Made by a program: the position numbers and the translations under genes
From: Dehalococcoidia bacterium
GTDB lineage: Bacteria; Chloroflexota; Dehalococcoidia; Lucifugimonadales; CAUZJF01
Reading direction: 5' to 3'
NCBI GenBank assembly: GCA_965237635.1
Contig: CBDEFX010000002.1
Coordinates: 729,829 to 793,828, forward strand
DNA: 64,000 nt
Notes under the pieces: generated by a model
Seen by the model: only the letters and a program-made list of their open reading frames with translations
The model's database searches: none
What the model was told of the DNA's origin: nothing
Part shown: piece after piece, positions 2,699 through 59,120 of the stretch
How the letters are laid out: each line of letters opens with the position of its first letter
Position numbering within the stretch: the stretch's first letter is position 1

Positions 2699-5563
2699 CT
2701 ACTCGGGCTCGATGACCGTGAGCCGCCGGTTGGCATCCACGTCGGTCAAGGTCTGCACCTTGCCGCTGGGCCATGTGATTGTCACCGAGTCCGCCACAGC
2801 CGACGCGTCGAGCCCGAAGTGTGCGGCCATCATGTTCTGCCCCATCTGGCTCGAGCCGCCGGATATCTCTCTGATCTGCGTCGTCCCTCCGGCGACCATC
2901 GTTATCCTGGCGCCGATACCATCCCGGTTGCTGAGGCTGCCGACGGTCTTGATTTCCAGCCAGTTGTTGTTGTCGCCACATGCGTTCTGGAATAGCTTGG
3001 CACTCTGCCCCAGATTTGCGACAAACAGATCGAGGCAGCCGTCTTTATTGAAGTCGAGGTAGACGCCGCCTCGCCCGATTCCTTCATCGTCCACACCGCT
3101 CCCCGAGGAGACGTCGCTAAACGTCCCATCCCCTTTGTTTCGGAGCAGGATGTTCGGCTGCTGGACCGGGTTGCCGTGAAGGAGGCCCTTCAAGAACCCG
3201 CTGACGATGTATAGGTCCTCAAGCCCATCGTTGTCGTAGTCGAAGAACATGGTCGCCCAGTCGACGCTCTGTTTGTTCTTGATCCCGATCTCAGCTCCCG
3301 CCTCGACGGTGGTGTTTGTGAACGTCAGGCCATCGCCGTTGTTCCTCAATAGAGCGTTTCTATTCGTATTGGACATGTAGAAATCGAGGAAGCCGTCGAG
3401 GTCGTAGTCTCCTATGGCCAGGCCCATTCCATCGATAATCACGTCTGCCCCGGAGCTCTCGGAGACATCAAGGAATTCCCAGCTCCCGTCTTCGGCGGCG
3501 CCGTCGTTCCGCCACAGAACGTTGGGGTGGACTACTCGCCCGTAGTCGTTGACGACGTACAGGTCCAGGTCACCATCGTTGTCGAAGTCCACCCACCCTG
3601 GTTGGTACCCGGCTCCGGAGATGTTGTTGATGACCTTGCCGTCGCCATCGCGCAAGGCCAATGTATCCCCAAGCAGGGGCGTGACGTCTGTGAAGCTCCC
3701 GTCACCGTTATTGTGATATAGGGCGAGGCTTCTGACATTCTCCGCATAGGGAACTCTATCGTTGAGGAACTCGGGCGCCCACGTTGCAAGATGGCGGACG
3801 ACAATCAAGTCCAGAGAGCCGTCCCGGTCGTAATCGCCCCAGGCGCACCCGGTAGACCGGTGGGTTACGTCTTGGTTGTCGACTGCGGCGACGCCGGTCA
3901 CATCGGTGAACTGCCCATTGCCATTGTTGCGGAAGAGCTTGCTCGAGCCGAAGCTTGTGACGAACAGGTCCTGGTCACCGTCGTTGTCGTAGTCGGCGGC
4001 GCAACCCCCATTCCCCACGCCTTGTGGGTCATCCACGCCTACGGCAACGGCCACGTCGGTGAAGGTCCCGTCCCCTTCGTTGCGGTAGAGGGCATTCGGG
4101 CCCTCGGAGTTAGTGACGTAGATGTCCTGGAATCCGTCGTTGTTGAAATCGAGGACTAGGGCGCCCGCCCCGGTGTTTACGTCAAGGTAGGAGCCCTTAT
4201 CGTCGACTTCCGAGCCCGGTGAGCCGGCTACGACTCCTCCGTTGACTCTCCGATGAACGAAGTCTATACCTGCGGCGAGGCTCACGTCGATGAAGGAAGG
4301 TGTCTCATCCGCCGTGCTCGACTCTCGGCTAGGCGGTGGGGCCTCCGAGGTCGAGGCGTCCGAGGTCTGGGCGGCTTCGGCTCCTCGGAGGCCCACTACG
4401 TCGGCCTCCTCCCAGATGAGCGCGCCGATGCCGAGTACAGCCATCCCTCCGATCGCCGCCAATGCCCAGGTCGCCCCCGCAAACACGACCGTCGCCCGCC
4501 TCGGCATAATCCTGGCCAGCCCCCAGAAGGTTACCGGGCCGCCGGCCGCTGCGGCGAATAGGAGCGTGGCGGCTGGGGCTGTGCCCATTCCGAGAAGCAA
4601 CAAGAGGGCTACAAGAGGAATCTCGAAAAGCAGCGGCACATTGATGGCGATACCTAGAGTAGCCGCAATCGCGACTCCCATGAGGTCGTTCCCCAGGTAA
4701 CGGGAGACCGTCTCGGGACTTATCCACTGGATCGCCAGGCCGCTGGCAAATCCCGCCGCTATCATTATGGGCCCCATACGGACCAGGTAGCCGATGCTCG
4801 TTCTCGCCCAGTCTCGGAAGGCCTCCGTTAGCGCCGGCCCCCATGGAGAAGTCTCCTGATGTTGTTGAATCGGCAGTGAACCCGGTCCGGCATCTTCGTC
4901 TCGTCTGCTCTTCCGCACGGCGAACACTACGATAGGGCCCAGAATCAGGGCTCCTACGAGGGCCAGAACGAGACGACTTAGGCCAAGCAGCGGCGTAAAG
5001 ACGAAGAAGACCATCGCGAGAGCCGGTATATTCAGGGTGGCAGACCCCTGCACCATCGCGATAGCGCCCTCGATCCCGCCTCCCCTCCTCTCGTAGGCCC
5101 GGGAGACGGGCACGATACAGGCGGAGCACAGATTCATCACCGGTCCGACGGCGAGACCCTTGAGCGTTCGCTTAAACGTGCCTCCCGAGATATACCTCGT
5201 CCCGCTGGAGTCAGGGAACAGAAATGACTCCGTAAGACCGGCCACCAGAAAGGCAAACATCATGCCTACGGTGACTAGCCGCAGATAAGTGACAGAGAAG
5301 ACCCACCATCTTGTGAGGAAGTTGGACCCGGGCTCCCTTTCGATACAGAACCCCTGGAAGCACTGGACCTCCGTGGCTGTGACCACATCAAGGTCGCCCC
5401 CCACGATGTCCAGCTTGGGGAAACGGTTAAAGGCGAAAAACAGGGATAGGATCACCAGGAAGAGAACGAGCCCGACGGCCCGTTTCTTCTGTAGCGCCGT
5501 GCCGAGCGACGGCCAGCCAATCTTTAGGGGCAGGCCCGCTAAGGCCCTTGTCATGCCACTCAT
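2699..5563 (-). CDS. DUF318/ArsP-like permease fused to FG-GAP repeat + ASPIC/UnbV (CRTAC1-like) domain
   Basis: N-terminal multi-TM region with NLCSAC motif, S/T/A-rich linker, repeated DxDxDGxxDL motifs, C-terminal NRDGIGARI...HFGL...WPSG signature. Confidence 0.85.
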   Translation of the reverse strand: MSGMTRALAGLPLKIGWPSLGTALQKKRAVGLVLFLVILSLFFAFNRFPKLDIVGGDLDVVTATEVQCFQGFCIEREPGSNFLTRWWVFSVTYLRLVTVGMMFAFLVAGLTESFLFPDSSGTRYISGGTFKRTLKGLAVGPVMNLCSACIVPVSRAYERRGGGIEGAIAMVQGSATLNIPALAMVFFVFTPLLGLSRLVLALVGALILGPIVVFAVRKSRRDEDAGPGSLPIQQHQETSPWGPALTEAFRDWARTSIGYLVRMGPIMIAAGFASGLAIQWISPETVSRYLGNDLMGVAIAATLGIAINVPLLFEIPLVALLLLLGMGTAPAATLLFAAAAGGPVTFWGLARIMPRRATVVFAGATWALAAIGGMAVLGIGALIWEEADVVGLRGAEAAQTSDASTSEAPPPSRESSTADETPSFIDVSLAAGIDFVHRRVNGGVVAGSPGSEVDDKGSYLDVNTGAGALVLDFNNDGFQDIYVTNSEGPNALYRNEGDGTFTDVAVAVGVDDPQGVGNGGCAADYDNDGDQDLFVTSFGSSKLFRNNGNGQFTDVTGVAAVDNQDVTHRSTGCAWGDYDRDGSLDLIVVRHLATWAPEFLNDRVPYAENVRSLALYHNNGDGSFTDVTPLLGDTLALRDGDGKVINNISGAGYQPGWVDFDNDGDLDLYVVNDYGRVVHPNVLWRNDGAAEDGSWEFLDVSESSGADVIIDGMGLAIGDYDLDGFLDFYMSNTNRNALLRNNGDGLTFTNTTVEAGAEIGIKNKQSVDWATMFFDYDNDGLEDLYIVSGFLKGLLHGNPVQQPNILLRNKGDGTFSDVSSGSGVDDEGIGRGGVYLDFNKDGCLDLFVANLGQSAKLFQNACGDNNNWLEIKTVGSLSNRDGIGARITMVAGGTTQIREISGGSSQMGQNMMAAHFGLDASAVADSVTITWPSGKVQTLTDVDANRRLTVIEPE

Positions 5564-8072: not shown

Positions 8073-8758
8073 GGAGCCTGTCTCATAAGTCGAGCGATGG
8101 GTTTGACGGAGTGTACACTCATTGGAGTCAGACCGACTTAGGGGGTGAAGTCGATGCCACTTCGAGCGAAGGGCCGAGAGCAGATGTGGATGTTGCCGCC
8201 AACGCTTGACGAGCTGGTTCCCCCTGACCATCCGGCAAGATTTGTTGCTGAGTTCGTAGACGCGTTGGACCGGCGCGGATGGGCTGACCTTGGTGTTGAG
8301 ATAGATGGGGAGTCTTTGGGAGCACCGGCGTACCATCCTCGCGCGCTGCTGAGCGTATGGCTGTACGGCTTCATGACGGGGGCACGCTCGTGCCGCAAGC
8401 TGGAGGCGGCTTGCCGGGACCAGATACCGTATCTTTGGCTGACAGGGTGGCAGCATCCGGACCACAACACCTTGTGGAGGTTCTACAAAGGACATCGTCA
8501 AGCTATCAGGAAGTTGTTCAAGCGTACGGTGCGTATGGCGGTGACGATGGGCTTGGTTGACCTGGCGGTGCAAGCAGTAGACGGTACGAAGGTCGGTGCG
8601 AATGCAGCAAAGGATAGGACCTACGATGCCGAGGGATTGCGCCGGCTGTTGGACCGGCTGGAAGGTGCAATAAGCGACCTTGTGGCTCAGAACGAGGCGG
8701 GAGAGGATGCTGTCCCTGCACACTTGCCACAGGAGCTGGCCGACAACGAGACCCTGAG
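8073..8758 (+). mobile_element. IS1182-family element, left part only (transposase from ATG 8154, truncated by IS256)
   Basis: DUF772-type N-terminus (LPPTLDELVPPDHPARF, PAYHP, SCRKLE, PDHNTL, VDGTKV.ANA); putative end GGAGCCTGTCTCATAA. Confidence 0.85.
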
Positions 8759-13401: not shown

Positions 13402-14836
13402 CTAGGGCGGTGGGGGTGGGAACTGCGATTCGTTGAACTGTACCGCCGTGACCTCCCACGCGAACGAGTAAGTCTTATTTTCTTCTGCATCGTTGTCCAG
13501 GTGGACATGCAGCGTGCCAAGCACCTCGTCTCCAGCATGGAGCTGAGAACCTAGCCAAGTCTCCGAACCGATAATCTCCACGGTAGTGCTAGCAGGCAAG
13601 CCGACGGAGCCGATCGGCTCAACCGCTGGCGTCTAGTATTCGAGTGACTCGATATGTACCGGGATTGACCCTAATGAGTGGATGTCAATGTCGCAGTAGT
13701 AGTCGATCGAGGGGTACGCGCCGGTAAGCACCACTACCAAGACATTGTCTAGAATTTCGCAACGTATATCGCTGACGTCCTTCGCCGTCGTGAACCCACC
13801 GCCACTGGCAGTGGTGATGGTCAGATCGAACAGGATCGGGGTCTCGCCAGTCGAAGCCCTGGTCCAACTCGCGACGACCTTGAGGCACTGCCCGTCCGCC
13901 ACACTTAGGTCATCACCGTCGGTGACGGCCTCTGACGCGCCGAAGCTAACGCAGTCCGCGCTACTCGCGGCGGTAACCGCAATGGAGCTGGTTGCCGGCT
14001 CAGAAGAAGTCCAACTGACGGCGCCCCATTCTGCACCTACTATCCCGCTATCGTAGGTTACCGTCCATGCGCCGCTGTTGGGCGCCGCGGTCAGCGTGCT
14101 TCCCGTCATGTCGCTGTAGTTGTAGAGTCTCCCTCCAACGACCACTACGAGGTCTTCTGCACCTACCGGAGTCACCGCGTCGCCGCCGATGGGACCCAGA
14201 GCAGGATCGATACGATGAGCCTTACCGTTGTTGTATCCAGTGGCCCAGATCTTGCCGGCACTGTCGACAGCAACTCCGGTCGGGCCCACATTCTGGTCTG
14301 AGAGAACTACATTGCCTATGAAAGTACCGTCGTTCAGGAGATGGCCGATCGTTCTTCTATTGGGGTCCAGCGAATGAGCAGTCCAAACATGATCGTTGCC
14401 GTCGACAACGCAGCCTTGGGCGCGTCCGGCGCCTGCCCCGTGCGGGAATCCGCCAAGGAAAGTCCCGTCGGGCGCATACTTATTGATTAGGTTCCCGTTC
14501 AGCTGGGTATTCCACACGTTGCCCTGACTGTCGATACGCAATCCGTAGCTGTCGGGAGAGAACTGGCCAGCCCAGTTTGTACTAGTTGCCGGTGGCCCTA
14601 TCGAAGTGCCGGCAGGGTCACCGTTTACCCCGGTCAACGTAAGGGCTGTGTCCCACCTCAGTAGACCTCTGGCCGACCAGATGACGCCGTTCGGGTCGAT
14701 CAGTCCGCCGTAGCCACCGAATCCCAAACTTCCGATAGCATGCTCGGTTCGAATAATGGTTCCAGAGCCCGGGACGTCATACTTGCCCCCCATGACTAGA
14801 TCGAACTTACTCGAACCGCTGGAGAATACACACCGC
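13402..14836 (-). pseudogene. secreted/surface beta-propeller (Vgb/NHL-like) protein remnant, internal stop at 13633, 5' part lost
   Basis: Repeats GL.IDxxGxVW, PTGVAVDSAGKIW and YSDMTG; frame continues past TAG to 13402. Confidence 0.65.
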
Positions 14837-16208
14837 AGTAGAGTCCCAGGAAGTGGTGTAAGAGGGAGAGGGTCTGGAGAAAGAGAGACCACCGCGTCAT
14901 CCTTAGCGGGCAAAGAAGAAAGCTCGAGAAAGGAGGACAACAGTGGTTAAGGAAAGGATGGACCTGCTGGAGCTATTGCGCAGGGGGGGAATGGACGGTG
15001 ACGTGGACTTCCTACGGGAGGCACTGAGAGTGCTGGTAGAGGGGATCATGGATGCGGAGGTGTCATCGAGGATCGGTGCTGAGTATGGAGAACGCAGCCC
15101 TGAGCGGGTGACTCAGCGCAACGGGTATCGGTCCCGGGCGTGGGATACCCGTGTGGGGACTATGGAGCTGCACATCCCGAAGCTTCGAGAGGGGAGCTAC
15201 TTCCCGAGCCTGCTGGAGCCACGGCGTCGCAGCGAGCGAGCTCTGCTGGCGGTCATTCAGCAGGCCTACGTGGAAGGGGTATCCACAAGGCGGGTGGATG
15301 ACCTGGTCAAGGCCCTGGGGTGTGAGGGTATCTCCAAGAGCCAGGTGTCGCGTATCTGTCAGGAGCTGGACGTGGTGGTGGATGGCTTCCTGGGCCGTCC
15401 GCTGGACGGTGGACCCTACCCTTACCTGTGGCTGGACGCACTGACCCAGAAGGTCAGGGAGGACGGCAGGATCGTCAACGTCAGCGTGGTGGTGGCGACG
15501 GCCGTCAATGGCGAGGGCAAGCGGGAGATCATTGGGATGGGCGTGGGTACCAGTGAAGACGGCGCCTTCTGGCTGGCCTTCCTACGCTCGCTGTCCGCCA
15601 GGGGCCTCAGCGGGGTGGAGCTGGTGGTATCGGACGCTCATCAGGGACTCCGCGGCGCCATCGCCGCAGTCTTCGGCGGAGCCAACTGGCAACGGTGGCC
15701 GCACCCACTTCATGACCAACCTGCTCACTCGGGTACCCAGAAGAGTCCAACCATGGATGGCCACCATGGTCTGCACCATCTACCAGCAACCCTCCCCCGA
15801 TGAGGTACACGCCCAACTCGATAGGGTGACCGATCAACTCGGAGACCGGTTCCCTCAGGTGGCCTCTCTACTGGACGAGGCTGGACCCGATATCCTGGCC
15901 TTCTCCAGCTTCCCTGTCGCCCACTGGAAGAAGATCTGGTCCAACAACCCCCTGGAGCGTCTCAACAAGGAGATCAGGCGTCGCACCGATGTCGTGGGCA
16001 TCTTCCCTAACCGACCAGCCGTGCGTCGCCTGGTTGGCGCCGTCCTCGCTGAACAGCACGACGAATGGGCCGTCGGCCGCCGATACATCACACCTGTCGT
16101 GCTGATCCTAAACGAAGCTCTTCCGGAGGCCGATCTCGCGGAGGCGACAGCCGCCTAAACAACATCAACAGGATGACGCACTCTTACACCACTTGACGGG
16201 ACGTGACC
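14837..16208 (+). mobile_element. IS256-family element (type B), no TSD
   Basis: TIRs ..GTCCCAGGAAGTGGTGTAAGAG / CTCTTACACCACTTGACGGGACGTGACC; flanks are unrelated truncated genes. Confidence 0.88.
14943..16158 (+). pseudogene. IS256-family transposase with +1 frameshift near 15698
   Basis: RNGYR, GVSTRRV, WLDA, SDAH in frame 1; RTHF and SNNPLERLNKEIRRR in frame 2; QRC read as QRW. Confidence 0.9.
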
Positions 16209-56734: not shown

Positions 56735-57339
56735 ATCGCCCACCTGTTGACGGCCCTGCTCAGACTCCACAGTGTCCCTCGCACTCGTTGCCGAACCCGT
56801 CCCGTTGCCCATCGGCTCCCAACTCCGCCTCGTCGTGCGCGACCGCCTGGGCCAGGGGCATTCGTAGCGAGTGCAGGTACGGCGTCTTGTCCAGGGCCAG
56901 CCCGTCCCGCAGTCTGGCGTCGATCTCCACCGCCTCGGCGAACAGCTCCGGCCACCGTCGCTTCGTCTCGACCCAACGCTTGCGGGACTGGAAGGGACAT
57001 GCGACGCAGGCCGAGCGTTCCAGGGGCCTGTCGTAGCGGGCGGCCCACTAGTCGGCGCAGTCCTTGCGGGACATGCCCGCCTCGATGAGCGGGTAGCGGT
57101 TGGTTATCCAGCTGTTGCGGGAGGTCCTCATGCGGATGGCCTCGTCGGTGGAGATGCCGAGCCAAAGCTCGACGGTGGTTCCGTTGGGGACTCGCTGCCT
57201 GGGCTTGAGTCCCAGCAGCTCGCGTATTCTGCGGCGTATGGGCCTGATCTTGTAGTTGTCGGTGCACTGGCGCCTGCCGATGCCGTCTCCCTCTCCGGCG
57301 TGTCCCTTCAGGTAGACGGGTATGATGCTCCTATACATG

Positions 57340-58416
57340 TCAAGCCGCCCGTCGGACTATCTCCACAGAGTTTTGCAGGACCGAGAAGACTTCGCGAGCG
57401 ACATAGCGTTTGAGGCAGCGGATCACTTCACTCTTGCTCATCCCCTCCATGGTGCGGCGTCGCATGTATGCTCTAGTCCGGTGATCATGGCGAAGCCTGA
57501 CGAGAACGATGCGATAGAGAGCCGCATTGGCCTGACGGTCACCACCGCGATTGAGCCGGTGGCGGTTGGTCTTGCCGGAGGAGGCGGGTATGGGGTTTAC
57601 CCCGCACAATGAGGCGAAGGCAGCCTCTGAGTGGAGACGTTCAGGGTTACTCCCGGCAGCGATCAGGAGGTTGGCCGCCGAGTCGGGTCCTATGCCGAAG
57701 ACACTGACCAGGGCTGGCGCTACCTTCCGGATGAGTCGATCGAGCTCGGCCTCCAGGTCGTGGACCTCCTTACCGAGTTGGAGGTAGCGACAGGCGAGAG
57801 AGCGAAGCGTGTACCTGGCTGCCGCGTTGGGACCGTCTAGGTGACCGGGACGGAAGCTCTTGCAGCGCGCCATGAGGGCACCGGCGGCGAGACCATCAAG
57901 GGTTTCGCGAAGCTCGGGCGGTGCCGTGACGATCAGCGCCTTCATCTGGTTGAAGGCTTGAGTACGAGCCTTGACAGCCGAGTCCTTGGTACTCTTGAGC
58001 ATGCGGATCATCTCGACTTCGCCCTCGCCTGACTTGGGAGTGGCGTCGGCCACTCCACTAAGCACCGCACGCGCCGCCATCTCAGCATCGGTGGGGTCGC
58101 TCTTGCCCTTTCGATGGCGGGTCGACCGGTCAGGACGATTGACCTCGACGACGGCGTAGCCTCGACCGATCAGGAAGCGGGCGACTCCGGCCCCATAGGA
58201 ACCCGTGCCCTCAATCCCGAAAGCTCGAATCTCTCCCAGTCCCCGTGACCATCGCTCGAGCTCCCCATACCCGAACATGGTTGCCGGCATGTGCCGCTCG
58301 CCGAGGCGGACGCCCTGCCGGTCAATGGCTACTGCAACATGCCTGTCTTGGTGGGTGTCGACTCCGATGATGACCTGAACGGCACGACTACCTTCGTGAC
58401 CTACGACTCCTGTCAT
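57340..58416 (-). CDS. IS110-family DEDD recombinase (358 aa)
   Basis: GVDTH, IEGTGSYG, KSDPTDA, GIG, PIPASSG (catalytic Ser), RLNRGGDRQAN; GGAGG before ATG. Confidence 0.95.
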   Translation of the reverse strand: MTGVVGHEGSRAVQVIIGVDTHQDRHVAVAIDRQGVRLGERHMPATMFGYGELERWSRGLGEIRAFGIEGTGSYGAGVARFLIGRGYAVVEVNRPDRSTRHRKGKSDPTDAEMAARAVLSGVADATPKSGEGEVEMIRMLKSTKDSAVKARTQAFNQMKALIVTAPPELRETLDGLAAGALMARCKSFRPGHLDGPNAAARYTLRSLACRYLQLGKEVHDLEAELDRLIRKVAPALVSVFGIGPDSAANLLIAAGSNPERLHSEAAFASLCGVNPIPASSGKTNRHRLNRGGDRQANAALYRIVLVRLRHDHRTRAYMRRRTMEGMSKSEVIRCLKRYVAREVFSVLQNSVEIVRRAA

Positions 58417-58429
58417 TTCCACCTCCTGC

Positions 58430-58621
58430 TGGAAGATGGCCGCCGGCCGGGTGAGCGGACAAGACTGCGATGGGGCGTGAGGCCAAGCTCCTATAAGGTC
58501 ACAGCTCGACGAGGCCGTCGGCACCGCATGGGAGGGCCACCCAGATCGAGTCGACAGATCATACCGAAGGCATCTCAGCCATCCACGTAGAGGGTCAGAC
58601 CCGAGCCGGGATAGCCCGGAT
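58430..58621 (-). ncRNA. IS110 bridge RNA (boundaries approximate)
   Basis: Two internal loops; guides CTACGTGGA/GGTATG match the target flanks and TATAGGAGC/CATCGCAG match the element ends. Confidence 0.88.
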
Positions 58622-58904
58622 ACATCATCGCAGTCCACGTAGTTTCGGGAGCCTGAGTGGTTGGTGAGGGCCTTCACGTCCTCGCGGAGGCTGCGCCCGT
58701 TGTCCACGACGTACGTGGGGAAGGTGAGATGGCTGGACAGCCATTCCAGGTGCTCGTAGACGCTGGGAGGCTCCCAGCGGGTGTCGGCGAAGATGGCGCA
58801 GTCCGGGATGCGGTCGAAGCCGCCCGCGCTCGCCATGAGGGCCATGACGGAGGACTGGACGCCCCCGCCCAGGCTGAGGACGGTGAGGGTTGGGGAGAAG
58901 GCCA

Positions 58905-59120
58905 TCAGCGCTCCTCCTCTCTGCCGTCCGGCTGCGGGTCCGTCTCTGGGCGAGGAGGGTCGTCCTGGGCCAGCTCGACCAGGATGGTGAAGAGGCGGCG
59001 CAGCCGCGCCTGGGCATCGGGAGCGGGCTTGACGTCGATGCCGACGACCCTCAGCTCCGGCTCGTCCCTGGCTGTCCTCCGCCGTCTATTCGGTTGGTTC
59101 TTTCCGGTGGCGTCTTCCAT
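58905..59120 (-). CDS. hypothetical protein (71 aa)
   Basis: TGATG coupling to the PAPS-reductase-like gene. Confidence 0.55.
   Translation of the reverse strand: MEDATGKNQPNRRRRTARDEPELRVVGIDVKPAPDAQARLRRLFTILVELAQDDPPRPETDPQPDGREEER

Follow-up and report, generated by a model that had tools for sequence, protein, structure and literature searches.

The 64-kb window (the whole stretch of DNA analyzed, 64,000 nucleotides) carries an IS110-group insertion sequence that, in all probability, encodes a bridge RNA in its 216-nt left end. Insertions of this element and its relatives share a single base, C, at the crossover, and this one-base core is common to a large environmental clade and not peculiar to the window copy. 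We propose tentatively, as a reading that falls somewhat short of an even chance, that members of this large, mostly environmental clade use a one-nucleotide core (C) and two handshake bases, and that their cut, counted from the boundary between right guide and handshake, falls one position earlier than that of IS621. In this tentative proposal, the fixed T of IS621 is freed, the register of the left guide is loose, and pairing of the left guide with the core is dispensable.

The insertion sequence and the gene that it interrupts

The element, its junctions, and the interrupted gene have the following coordinates in the window.

57325..58632, minus strand: IS110-group insertion sequence, 1308 bp (ends set by uninterrupted paralogs)
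58633..58642, minus strand: left target half CTACGTGGA (58642-58634) and crossover C (58633) (from the sequence)
57319..57324, minus strand: crossover C (57324) and right target half ATACC (57323-57319) (from the sequence and uninterrupted paralogs)
58417..58632, minus strand: left end, 216 nt, with the probable bridge RNA (from the sequence and the alignment of relatives)
57340..58416, minus strand: recombinase gene, 358 aa and stop codon (Pfam and PDB sequence matches)
57325..57343, minus strand: right end with TTGACA (57343-57338), TATAGGAGC (57335-57327), and AT (57326-57325) (from the sequence)
56760..58905, minus strand: interrupted PAPS-reductase-like gene, N-terminal part 58905-58633 and C-terminal part 57323-56760 (Pfam, PHROG, and paralogs)

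The length of 1308 bp excludes the C that is found at both junctions (58633 and 57324). On the minus strand, the element begins with TGCGATG at 58632, and the first-pass annotation was right about the size of the left end, which comprises the 216 nt ahead of the ATG (58416). This noncoding left end is long, and the right end is short, with 15 nt past the stop codon of the recombinase gene. The right-end TTGACA overlaps that stop codon, TATAGGAGC constitutes the left donor half, and the terminal AT represents the proposed donor handshake bases. Terminal inverted repeats are absent, as is characteristic of the IS110 group. The element itself is present as a single copy in its own genome, which also harbors five near-full-length paralogs with 80-84% identity.

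The recombinase ORF is full length, with residues 1-358 aligning with relatives. It carries both domains typed by Pfam as PF01548 DEDD_Tnp_IS110 (E 5e-18, 65.7 bits; cutoff 29) and PF02371 Transposase_20 (E 7e-19, 68.5 bits; cutoff 21.3). The best PDB sequence match is IS621 (8wt6), to which the similarity is low (E 2.8e-10), followed by the ISCro4 transposase (9t56, E 8.1e-10), the second-best solved relative, which matches in the same Tnp-domain region and was compared by protein sequence alone. In an alignment to these two proteins, the motifs IGvDT, IEgTGsY, KsDptDA, and SSG are in register with the IS621 catalytic motifs, S241 among the residues concerned. The sequence suggests that the recombinase is intact, and it would be programmable.

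The interrupted gene is PAPS-reductase-like, as judged by Pfam PF01507, by matches of both parts to PHROG 424, and by agreement with the translations of paralogs. It carries a second lesion, a TAG at 57050-57048 where the paralogs have TGG. The gene belongs to an integrated mobile element, plausibly an ICE, and its neighbors include an ORF bearing a type IV coupling-protein domain and a large serine recombinase. For the host genome, this would be an ordinary event in which a further insertion sequence disrupts a gene of a multi-copy integrated element.

Guides and scaffold of the putative bridge RNA

The left end contains two modules of the same build, each with a pair of guides. Their positions, together with that of a stem that encloses the first module, are as follows.

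58534..58617, minus strand: long basal stem enclosing the target-binding module, left-end positions 16-24 (58617-58609) with 91-99 (58542-58534) (RNAalifold)
58547..58603, minus strand: target-binding module, with outer stem, 13x13 internal loop, and inner GGC/GCC stem with hairpin loop (helices 2 and 3 of the alignment)
58582..58590, minus strand: left target guide CUACGUGGA (matches the 9 bases ahead of the crossover C)
58560..58565, minus strand: right target guide GGUAUG, complement of CATACC (the last G pairs with the crossover C)
58558..58559, minus strand: AU 3′ of the right target guide, candidate handshake partner of the donor AT at 57326-57325 (complementarity)
58453..58507, minus strand: donor-binding module, built like the target-binding module (helices 5 and 6 of the alignment)
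58487..58495, minus strand: left donor guide UAUAGGAGC (sequence and covariation with the right end)
58465..58472, minus strand: right donor guide CAUCGCAG, complement of C+TGCGATG (sequence and relatives)
58463..58464, minus strand: UC 3′ of the right donor guide, candidate handshake partner of the target GA at 58635-58634 (covariation in relatives)

The first-pass annotation had reported all four guide strings in the DNA, and each is present where it was placed, that is CTACGTGGA at 58590-58582, GGTATG at 58565-58560, TATAGGAGC at 58495-58487, and CATCGCAG at 58472-58465. In the target loop, the guides agree with the target at 9/9 positions on the left (shifted by one) and 6/6 on the right, while the donor loop agrees with the joined element ends at 9/9 and 8/8 positions, respectively. 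The left guides carry top-strand sense; the right guides are the complement of that strand. The 9-mers CTACGTGGA and TATAGGAGC each occur three times in the window, where shuffles lead to an expectation of 0.29 and 0.20; none of 100 shuffled windows reached three occurrences. The third CTACGTGGA (15266) was discarded as a chance match; it is followed by AGGGG and is no target.

Relatives offer a view of whether guides and flanks change together. Among 85 elements from the same genome and Chloroflexota MAGs, 77 were parsed, and both ends were available in 73, corresponding to 61 distinct insertions. At least 10 of the 12 variable guide positions match the element's own flanks in 45 of these 61 insertions, compared with 13 of 1342 noncognate pairings (mean 4.5 matching positions). 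The relatives share ancestry, and these counts are not counts of independent events. Another 11 of the 61 insertions lie at sites that fit the guides of another element instead of their own. In all, guide and flank differ in step in twenty-three distinct guide pairs, at a protein identity of 75-87%, and in the window's own genome, four guide types each adjoin their own kind of flank. For the donor, the left-guide variants TATAAGAGC and TATAGAAGC are accompanied by the same change at the right end; the right donor guide displays no clean covariation with the element end. Guide-flank covariation across homologs had been suggested as a check on the bridge RNA assignment, and its outcome supports that assignment. 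The same applies to the IS621-type arrangement as a whole, with two similar internal loops upstream of a DEDD/Tnp recombinase and guides that covary with the flanks.

The structure of the left end was judged on the alignment of relatives (RNAalifold). The single-sequence MFE fold was rejected as a guide to structure because it is no better than that of shuffles (z -0.11). The scaffold of two stem/13x13-loop/stem modules is paired in 95.9% of 1258 cells, with compensatory change in 10 of 36 pairs and slid controls at 30-41%; on four of five measures, 0/500 shuffles reach the observed value. Pairing of both modules in the relatives supports the earlier description of two similarly built loops. 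The 5′ hairpin (CCGGG..CCCGG) described at the same time fares less well, as it competes with a long-range stem that covariation in the relatives favors. This basal stem (helix 1) is 93% paired in relatives, with compensatory change in three of its nine pairs, and what was described as a 5′ hairpin more probably forms one of its strands. The basal-stem pairing of the window copy was derived by hand, because MAFFT misaligned the stretch. An Rfam scan of 57000-59000 at E<=1 did not find a bridge-RNA family; its sole match was a chance pRNA (E 0.19).

It might be argued that the site is recognized by protein and that the repeated strings are leftovers of self-insertion or duplication, with no RNA guidance. 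Partial left-end duplications beside guide strings do occur, for example in L014. Contigs from 4 of 24 sequencing runs (X1, X3, X4, and X20) were examined, and in the one metatranscriptome among them (X20), the pieces are 90-95% alike and, by that measure, derive from relatives or paralogs; they leave the left end uncovered and speak neither for nor against transcription. However, a protein-recognized site does not account for twenty-three guide pairs that shift with the flanks at that protein identity, nor for right guides that are reverse complements and not copies. Wobble-type differences between guide and target are tolerated, the scaffold has compensatory pairs, and the homologous IS621 system is, in the published passages that we consulted, experimentally RNA-guided. 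We consider recognition by protein alone so improbable as to be nearly negligible and continue with an RNA-guided element.

A one-base crossover, proposed handshake bases, and guide register

The first-pass annotation also pointed to a single C shared by target and donor at the crossover. A one-base overlap is indeed found at fourteen uninterrupted paralogous sites that represent three target types. For the window target, the flanks overlap by one base in 4/4 uninterrupted paralogs, as determined from coordinates, and at C2:65024, an uninterrupted paralog site has exactly the same left target half and C. The target TTATGAGAC|AGGCTC has a one-base overlap in seven uninterrupted copies, and the target CTACATCGA|CGAGTCC in 3/3. 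At occupied sites, the left junction reads C and then T, and the right junction reads C and then the target's own base. The donor has a T after the C; the target base at that position can be programmed freely. No dinucleotide core (CT or NT) paired by all four guides was seen, only the C being shared; the left donor guide of the parsed elements and the left target guide of the window copy both stop before it.

An IS621-like dinucleotide core, with the one-base overlap as an artefact of misplaced boundaries, would be in line with a donor junction that reads C-T and a right donor guide that ends in ..AG, as in IS621. In addition, the targets of some relatives begin with CT (for example CTTCGG), in which case two bases are shared. 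Nevertheless, the uninterrupted sites read ..GAC|ATACC, ..GAGAC|AGGCTC, and ..ATCGA|CGAGTCC, and a second common base is absent at occupied sites. The intact paralog proteins read ..YVD|IPVY.., and this reading frame agrees with the one-base overlap. On the strength of the uninterrupted sites of three target types and the paralog reading frame, we rejected the dinucleotide core, which we regard as very improbable, in favor of the one-base core.

The two bases that follow the left donor guide match had been described as unmatched. An AT does lie there, but it is complementary to the AU after the right target guide. We propose from these sequences that the dinucleotides after the right guides act as handshake guides, as in IS621. 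In the donor loop, the dinucleotide varies in concert with the target bases just 5′ of the C in 31 of 35 distinct combinations: UC occurs with GAC (17), UG with CAC (8), UU with AAC (2), UA with TAC (2), UA with TAG (1), and UG with CGC (1). The other four combinations are exceptions. The UU/AAC link is also present in the MAG set, and the dinucleotide tracks the bases at the end of the left target guide. The target-loop AU is invariant in 35 distinct left ends and the donor AT at 73 right ends. As neither side ever varies, the AU-AT half of the handshake is argued from complementarity alone.

The register of the left guide is 0 in most target loops of the clade, +1 in the window copy, and +2 in the parsed donor loops. 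In the canonical register, the window left target guide is identical at 1/9 positions and, shifted by one base, at 9/9. The offset may impair the efficiency of the window copy, and it provides a natural test of the coupling between guide register and cut site. A metagenome scan did not find the exact target loop of the window copy.

The offset could have arisen after insertion, by slippage or by two indels in a once canonical ..TACGTGGAC, and the present RNA would then be a crippled relic. This scenario draws on the rarity of the offset, seen in 1/61 MAG and own-genome insertions (the window copy) and in 0/56 metagenome insertions, on the single copy in its own genome, on an unchanged loop length such as a deletion and an insertion could yield, and on public contigs that carry an allele with another base at 58582. 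On the other hand, the extra 5′ base (C) of the guide matches the target too, making the agreement 9/9, and a left end identical to that of the window copy is present in contigs from three studies. The insertion site of L002, the sister type, is CTACATCGA-C, where an additional A precedes the C, which shows that the same offset is tolerated, and the donor loops of the parsed MAG and own-genome elements pair two bases short of the C. We find an origin after insertion unlikely and prefer a functional guide in an unusual register.

Relation to known systems and a proposed reaction

The comparison with IS621 and IS622 draws on passages of Durrant 2024, Hiraizumi 2024, and the Perry 2025 preprint. 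In these passages, IS621 and IS622 of E. coli need a CT or NT dinucleotide that is common to donor and target, and the core is described as a "short core" or a CT dinucleotide. As in IS621, the RNA of the window element has a target loop and a donor loop, its left guides have top-strand sense and its right guides are complementary, the terminal G of each right guide pairs with a C, and the two nucleotides after each right guide complement the bases 5′ of the C in the other substrate. The target-loop AU and the donor AT have the same letters as in wild-type IS621. The combination of DEDD and serine recombinase domains is likewise the same, as is the location of the -35 in the right end and the -10 in the left end.

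In contrast to IS621 with its CT core, as described in those passages, the clade shares the C only. The position of T9 in IS621 is the one that is T in the clade's donors and programmable in its targets, and the crossover, judged by the junctions, lies ahead of this position. In the clade, the left donor guide ends two bases short of the C, the native right target guide is 6 nt long, and an additional long basal stem encloses the clade's target module. The hosts also differ, being Chloroflexota (Dehalococcoidia/SAR202) MAGs, with further members in many metagenomes. A one-base core was not found in the bridge-recombinase literature searched; the supplementary tables of Durrant 2024, outside that search, may list one.

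The seekRNA elements in passages of Siddiquee 2024, both ISEc21 (IS110-type) and IS1111-type, resemble the window element in having short matches to both target strands upstream of the transposase gene and no target duplication; that the RNA can act in trans is a further likeness. IS1111-type elements differ in having the RNA downstream and subterminal inverted repeats, and a donor loop, a core, and a handshake are not among the features that the passages attribute to them.

Programmable insertion, inversion, and excision of DNA are the uses for which bridge recombinases are being developed. In a single genome, three target types are found naturally in both empty and occupied form; taken with the dozens of reprogrammed guides in relatives, these sites indicate that a single shared C and handshake pairing suffice in nature. 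If the proposal for the clade is true, the constraint on target sequence would be weaker than in IS621 and IS622, and clade members would mobilize each other's circles in trans wherever donor ends are shared. A base after the C that is set by the guide points to orthologs with a looser target constraint, and the natural variants of the clade would serve as a ready set of mutants for the handshake rule.

In the proposed reaction, the left target guide would base-pair to CTACGTGGA on its bottom strand, and module 2 would read the joined element ends likewise, with TATAGGAGC as the left half and CTGCGATG as the right half. A DEDD/serine recombinase tetramer, a step modeled on homology with IS621, would exchange strands beside the C, the base with which both right guides pair through their last G. 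Once the top strands have been exchanged, a handshake would follow in which the incoming 3′ ends pair with the opposite loops, the donor end ..AT-C with G-AU of the target loop and the target end ..GA-C with G-UC of the donor loop. The sequences themselves establish the anatomy, the covariation, the empty sites, and the one-base overlap; we infer that the RNA is expressed, that catalysis takes place, which side of the C is cut, and that a circle forms. Contigs joining 57323 to 58633 (four in X1 and one each in X3 and X4) were not counted as excision, as they may be uninterrupted paralogs of the target gene.

In the excised circle, 17 nt would separate the right-end TTGACA from the left-end TGcGATGAT downstream of it, giving a promoter for the RNA and the recombinase. 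The first left-end bases, TGCGATGAT, look like an extended -10 element, and positions 4-9 of the left end read GATGAT in 61/73 elements and GATAAT in 7/73. TTGACA recurs at 58 of the 73 right ends, and its spacing to the left-end -10 across the junction is 17 nt (56) or 18 nt (2).

The element, its relatives and the putative bridge RNA

The insertion considered here lies on the minus strand of the window and is flanked by the same base, hereafter the crossover C.

58632 (TGCGATG...) to 57325 (...TATAGGAGCAT), minus strand: IS110-group element, 1308 bp, with a C on either side (58633 and 57324)
58416-57340, minus strand: recombinase ORF, 358 aa, matching Pfam DEDD_Tnp_IS110 and Transposase_20, both over cutoffs

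The left non-coding end spans 216 nt, and the right end extends 15 nt past the stop codon. The best solved sequence relatives of the recombinase are the IS621 (8wt6, E 2.8e-10) and ISCro4 (9t56) transposases, and its IGvDT, IEgTGsY, KsDptDA, and SSG motifs align opposite the IS621 motifs. The four guide strings listed in a first-pass annotation, two in a target loop (matching the flanks) and two in a donor loop (matching the element ends), are all present on the minus strand of the window sequence, each at the position given there, as is every flank and end string that the annotation quotes. Two guide 9-mers occur three times each in the window (0.29 and 0.20 expected); the third CTACGTGGA was considered as a target and rejected as a chance match.

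A protein search with the recombinase returned 80 loci (75-87% identity), all from Dehalococcoidia/Chloroflexota/SAR202 MAGs. Together with five copies from the own genome, 85 elements were available, of which 77 could be parsed with a regular expression; 73 parsed elements have a recognisable right end, and 61 guide/flank combinations are distinct. The guide-flank covariation across homologs that the annotation had proposed to look for is present: at least 10 of the 12 variable guide positions match in 45 of the 61 insertions, and this level is reached by 13 of 1342 non-cognate pairings (mean 4.5). The left donor guide has changed in two lineages (TATAAGAGC and TATAGAAGC), and the same change is found at their right ends. 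The right junction reads ...AGC-AT/C in every parsed element (slash, junction), while left junctions read ...(G or A)AC/TGCGAT except where flanks end in GC (L002, L020/L021) or AT (L039/L075).

The target-loop scaffold pattern was also found in at least 120 stretches of public metagenomes, 80 of which were made into loci. Among the matches listed, 52 of 56 distinct metagenome elements with a recognisable left boundary have a left guide ending in AC, and the canonical left-guide register dominates in these 56 as well; of 14 metagenome elements with a parsed right end, 11 show ...AGC-AT-C followed by the right target guide complement. The MAG and metagenome relatives therefore indicate that the architecture is a trait of a large clade and not an oddity of the window copy. 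Collectively, covariation, scaffold, and recombinase motifs bear out the IS621-type reading of the annotation: the window element is an IS110-group member with an IS621-like bridge RNA, where both the RNA and its activity are putative.

Fold and possible expression of the left end

A single-sequence fold of the window left end is uninformative (z -0.11). Of the 37 distinct left ends, 35 were aligned. Both RNAalifold and a hand-written structure then give two modules built alike: an outer stem leads to an internal loop with 13 nt on each side, followed by a GGC/GCC inner stem of three pairs that a small loop closes. A long stem further encloses the target module, joining left-end positions ~16-24 and ~91-99 (window-copy positions). 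Standard pairs fill 95.9% of 1258 cells, with both-side changes at 10 of 36 pairs; with slid partners as a control, 30-41% are paired. On four of five measures, 0 of 500 shuffles attain the observed value; as the sequences are related, this is not a probability. The 5′ hairpin of the first-pass annotation takes up bases that form the 5′ side of the long stem, and covariation in the relatives favours the long stem (UA 19 vs CG 11 at one pair), so the hairpin is not retained.

With respect to expression, a TTGACA in the right end overlaps the recombinase stop codon. In a putative circle junction, it would be placed 17 nt upstream of GATGAT, itself preceded by TGC, as a candidate promoter. This spacing across the junction would be 17 nt in 56 of the 73 relatives and 18 nt in 2 more. 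Since the window element has the same direction as the gene it interrupts, read-through from that gene might be a further supply of bridge RNA, as described for IS621 in a 2026 Nature paper.

The crossover base and the proposed handshake

The G that pairs with the crossover C occupies position 9 of the 13-nt 3′ strand in each loop; the next four bases are AUCU in the target loop and UCUU in the donor loop. The AU has its complement in the donor AT that immediately precedes the C, and the UC has its complement in the GA that immediately precedes the C in the target. Hence, the two bases that had been described as unmatched are present as the donor AT, but they do have a complement. As described for IS621, top-strand exchange is followed by pairing of positions 81-82 and 166-167 with positions 6-7 of the opposite substrate (the "handshake"), and the wild-type target-loop handshake is AU versus donor AT. 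The handshake-guide arrangement in the window clade is like that of IS621, including the AU/AT letters. The target-loop handshake never varies, and it is its complementarity that suggests pairing. The donor-loop dinucleotide varies with the guide end: among the matches listed, the metagenome set has UC/GAC (17), UG/CAC (8), UU/AAC (2), UA/TAC (2), UA/TAG (1), and UG/CGC (1), and the other four of the 35 distinct combinations are exceptions to covariation. In the MAG set, the UU elements are those with guides ending in AAC.

When the two systems are aligned at the guide/handshake boundary, the C of the clade falls on C8 of the IS621 CT core, and the T that follows it in the donor falls on T9. 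The equivalent target position can be any base in this clade, mostly A, and is read by the right target guide. At occupied sites, the base after the C is the donor T on the left and that of the target itself on the right. The net crossover is therefore confined to the C, with the strands cut either 3′ or 5′ of it. Uninterrupted paralogs of three target types agree with the annotation in that the C is the sole base common to both junctions. The clade thus shares one base and not two, and the crossover lies one position earlier than the IS621 cut after T9. The literature searched yielded no description of a one-base core, although supplementary tables may list one.

Target sites, guide register and off-guide insertions

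A search of the own genome (4.43 Mb, two contigs, C1 and C2) gave one identical match, the window copy itself, and in addition five near-full-length paralogs (80-84% identity), one split copy, and some fragments. These paralogs and their sites constitute a natural experiment. The L002 type has the left guide CTACATTGC and the right guide complement CGAGTC; L002 itself is located at CTACATCGC/.../CGGGTC, where both differences from the guides are G-U-type wobbles, and its split sister (L008 + L007) at CTACATCGAC/.../CGAGTC. Three uninterrupted paralogs of the latter target read ...CTACATCGA/CGAGTCC. The two parts of the split copy (C1:1215138-1215576 and C1:1221693-1222556) break at element position ~439-445; 6 kb separates them and their orientations are opposite, suggesting an inversion or further rearrangement.

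The L003/L005/L006 type, with guides TTCTGAGAC and CAGGCT, occupies TTATGAGAC or TTCTGAGAC/.../CAGGCT, the end of another repeated element. This repeat has at least 10 genome copies with 150-nt ends >98% identical; 7 of 10 copies are uninterrupted at this end, reading ...TTATGAGAC/AGGCTC, and the copy in the window is one of these 7.

C2:1515944, 1529626, 866800; C1:990776, 941278, 1477369: copies of the repeated element
8075-8088 (8080), minus strand of the window: unoccupied L003-type target (TTATGAGA-C-AGGCT) at the end of the repeated element

L004 (C2:126646-127904), also of the L003 type, lacks its last bases; the right end stops after ...CTATA and unrelated sequence follows. In the paralog L011, guide and flank are both TTTTGAGAC.

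The gene split by the window element is PAPS-reductase-like (PF01507), and PHROG 424 matches both halves. Uninterrupted paralogs in the own genome (~292 aa) read ...SRSYVD/IPVYLKG..., the left- and right-flank alignments overlap by exactly one base in all four paralogs examined, and the paralog at C2:65024 is unoccupied with a full CTACGTGGAC/ATACC site. The window gene has a second lesion, a TAG at 57050-57048 versus TGG in three paralogs (CAD*W vs CADWW). Its neighbours encode a large serine recombinase, a DUF1016/YhcG nuclease, an HTH protein, and a 930-aa ORF with a TrwB coupling-protein domain (28.4 bits). The target gene therefore belongs to an integrated, possibly conjugative, multi-copy element, for which the name ICE used in the annotation is plausible. 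Further upstream are DUF499- and DUF1156-domain ORFs and a primase zinc-ribbon ORF (C2:801314-805970, locus L213:8315-12971), and a DDE transposase is present twice in this locus (3646-4971 and 14234-15559).

In the canonical register, the last base of the 9-nt left target guide falls on the C, and an invariant U comes next. The window-copy guide CUACGUGGA agrees with its flank at one of nine positions in this register and at all nine when shifted by one, onto the nine bases that precede the C. The same shift is seen in none of the other insertions of the 61-member MAG/own-genome set and in none of the 56 metagenome insertions among the matches listed; the metagenome element L160 is shifted in the opposite direction. 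The invariant U could form a wobble pair with the G facing the C. Two observations speak for tolerance of the offset: the sister type inserted at CTACATCGA-C, where an additional A precedes the C, and parsed MAG/own-genome donor loops pair nine bases and end two bases before the C. This left end, with zero differences over the target loop, also occurs in contigs from three runs, which belong to three studies, and is therefore not an assembly slip. Contigs of three runs carry A instead of T at 58582 (plus strand), changing the last left-target-guide base, together with four other differences and an unchanged left flank; a second allele of the window insertion therefore circulates.

Eleven insertions lie off their own target guides (L024, L027, L029, L036, L042, L047, L049, L053, L055, L058, L059), 10 of them in one MAG (L024-L059); the chimeric L023 is grouped with them. 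The flanks agree instead with the guide pair of a different subfamily in the data set, at 9-12 of 12 variable positions, and the donor ends are identical across the subfamilies involved. Bridge RNAs that act in trans on one another's circles would fit this pattern, as would recombination among copies. Elsewhere, a 51-nt partial left end (L014:1238-1290) stops exactly at the left target guide, directly before a full copy, and the left flanks of L101 and L121 are the target-loop scaffold of another copy. These three cases look like insertion or recombination at the guide DNA of the element itself, which mimics the left target half.
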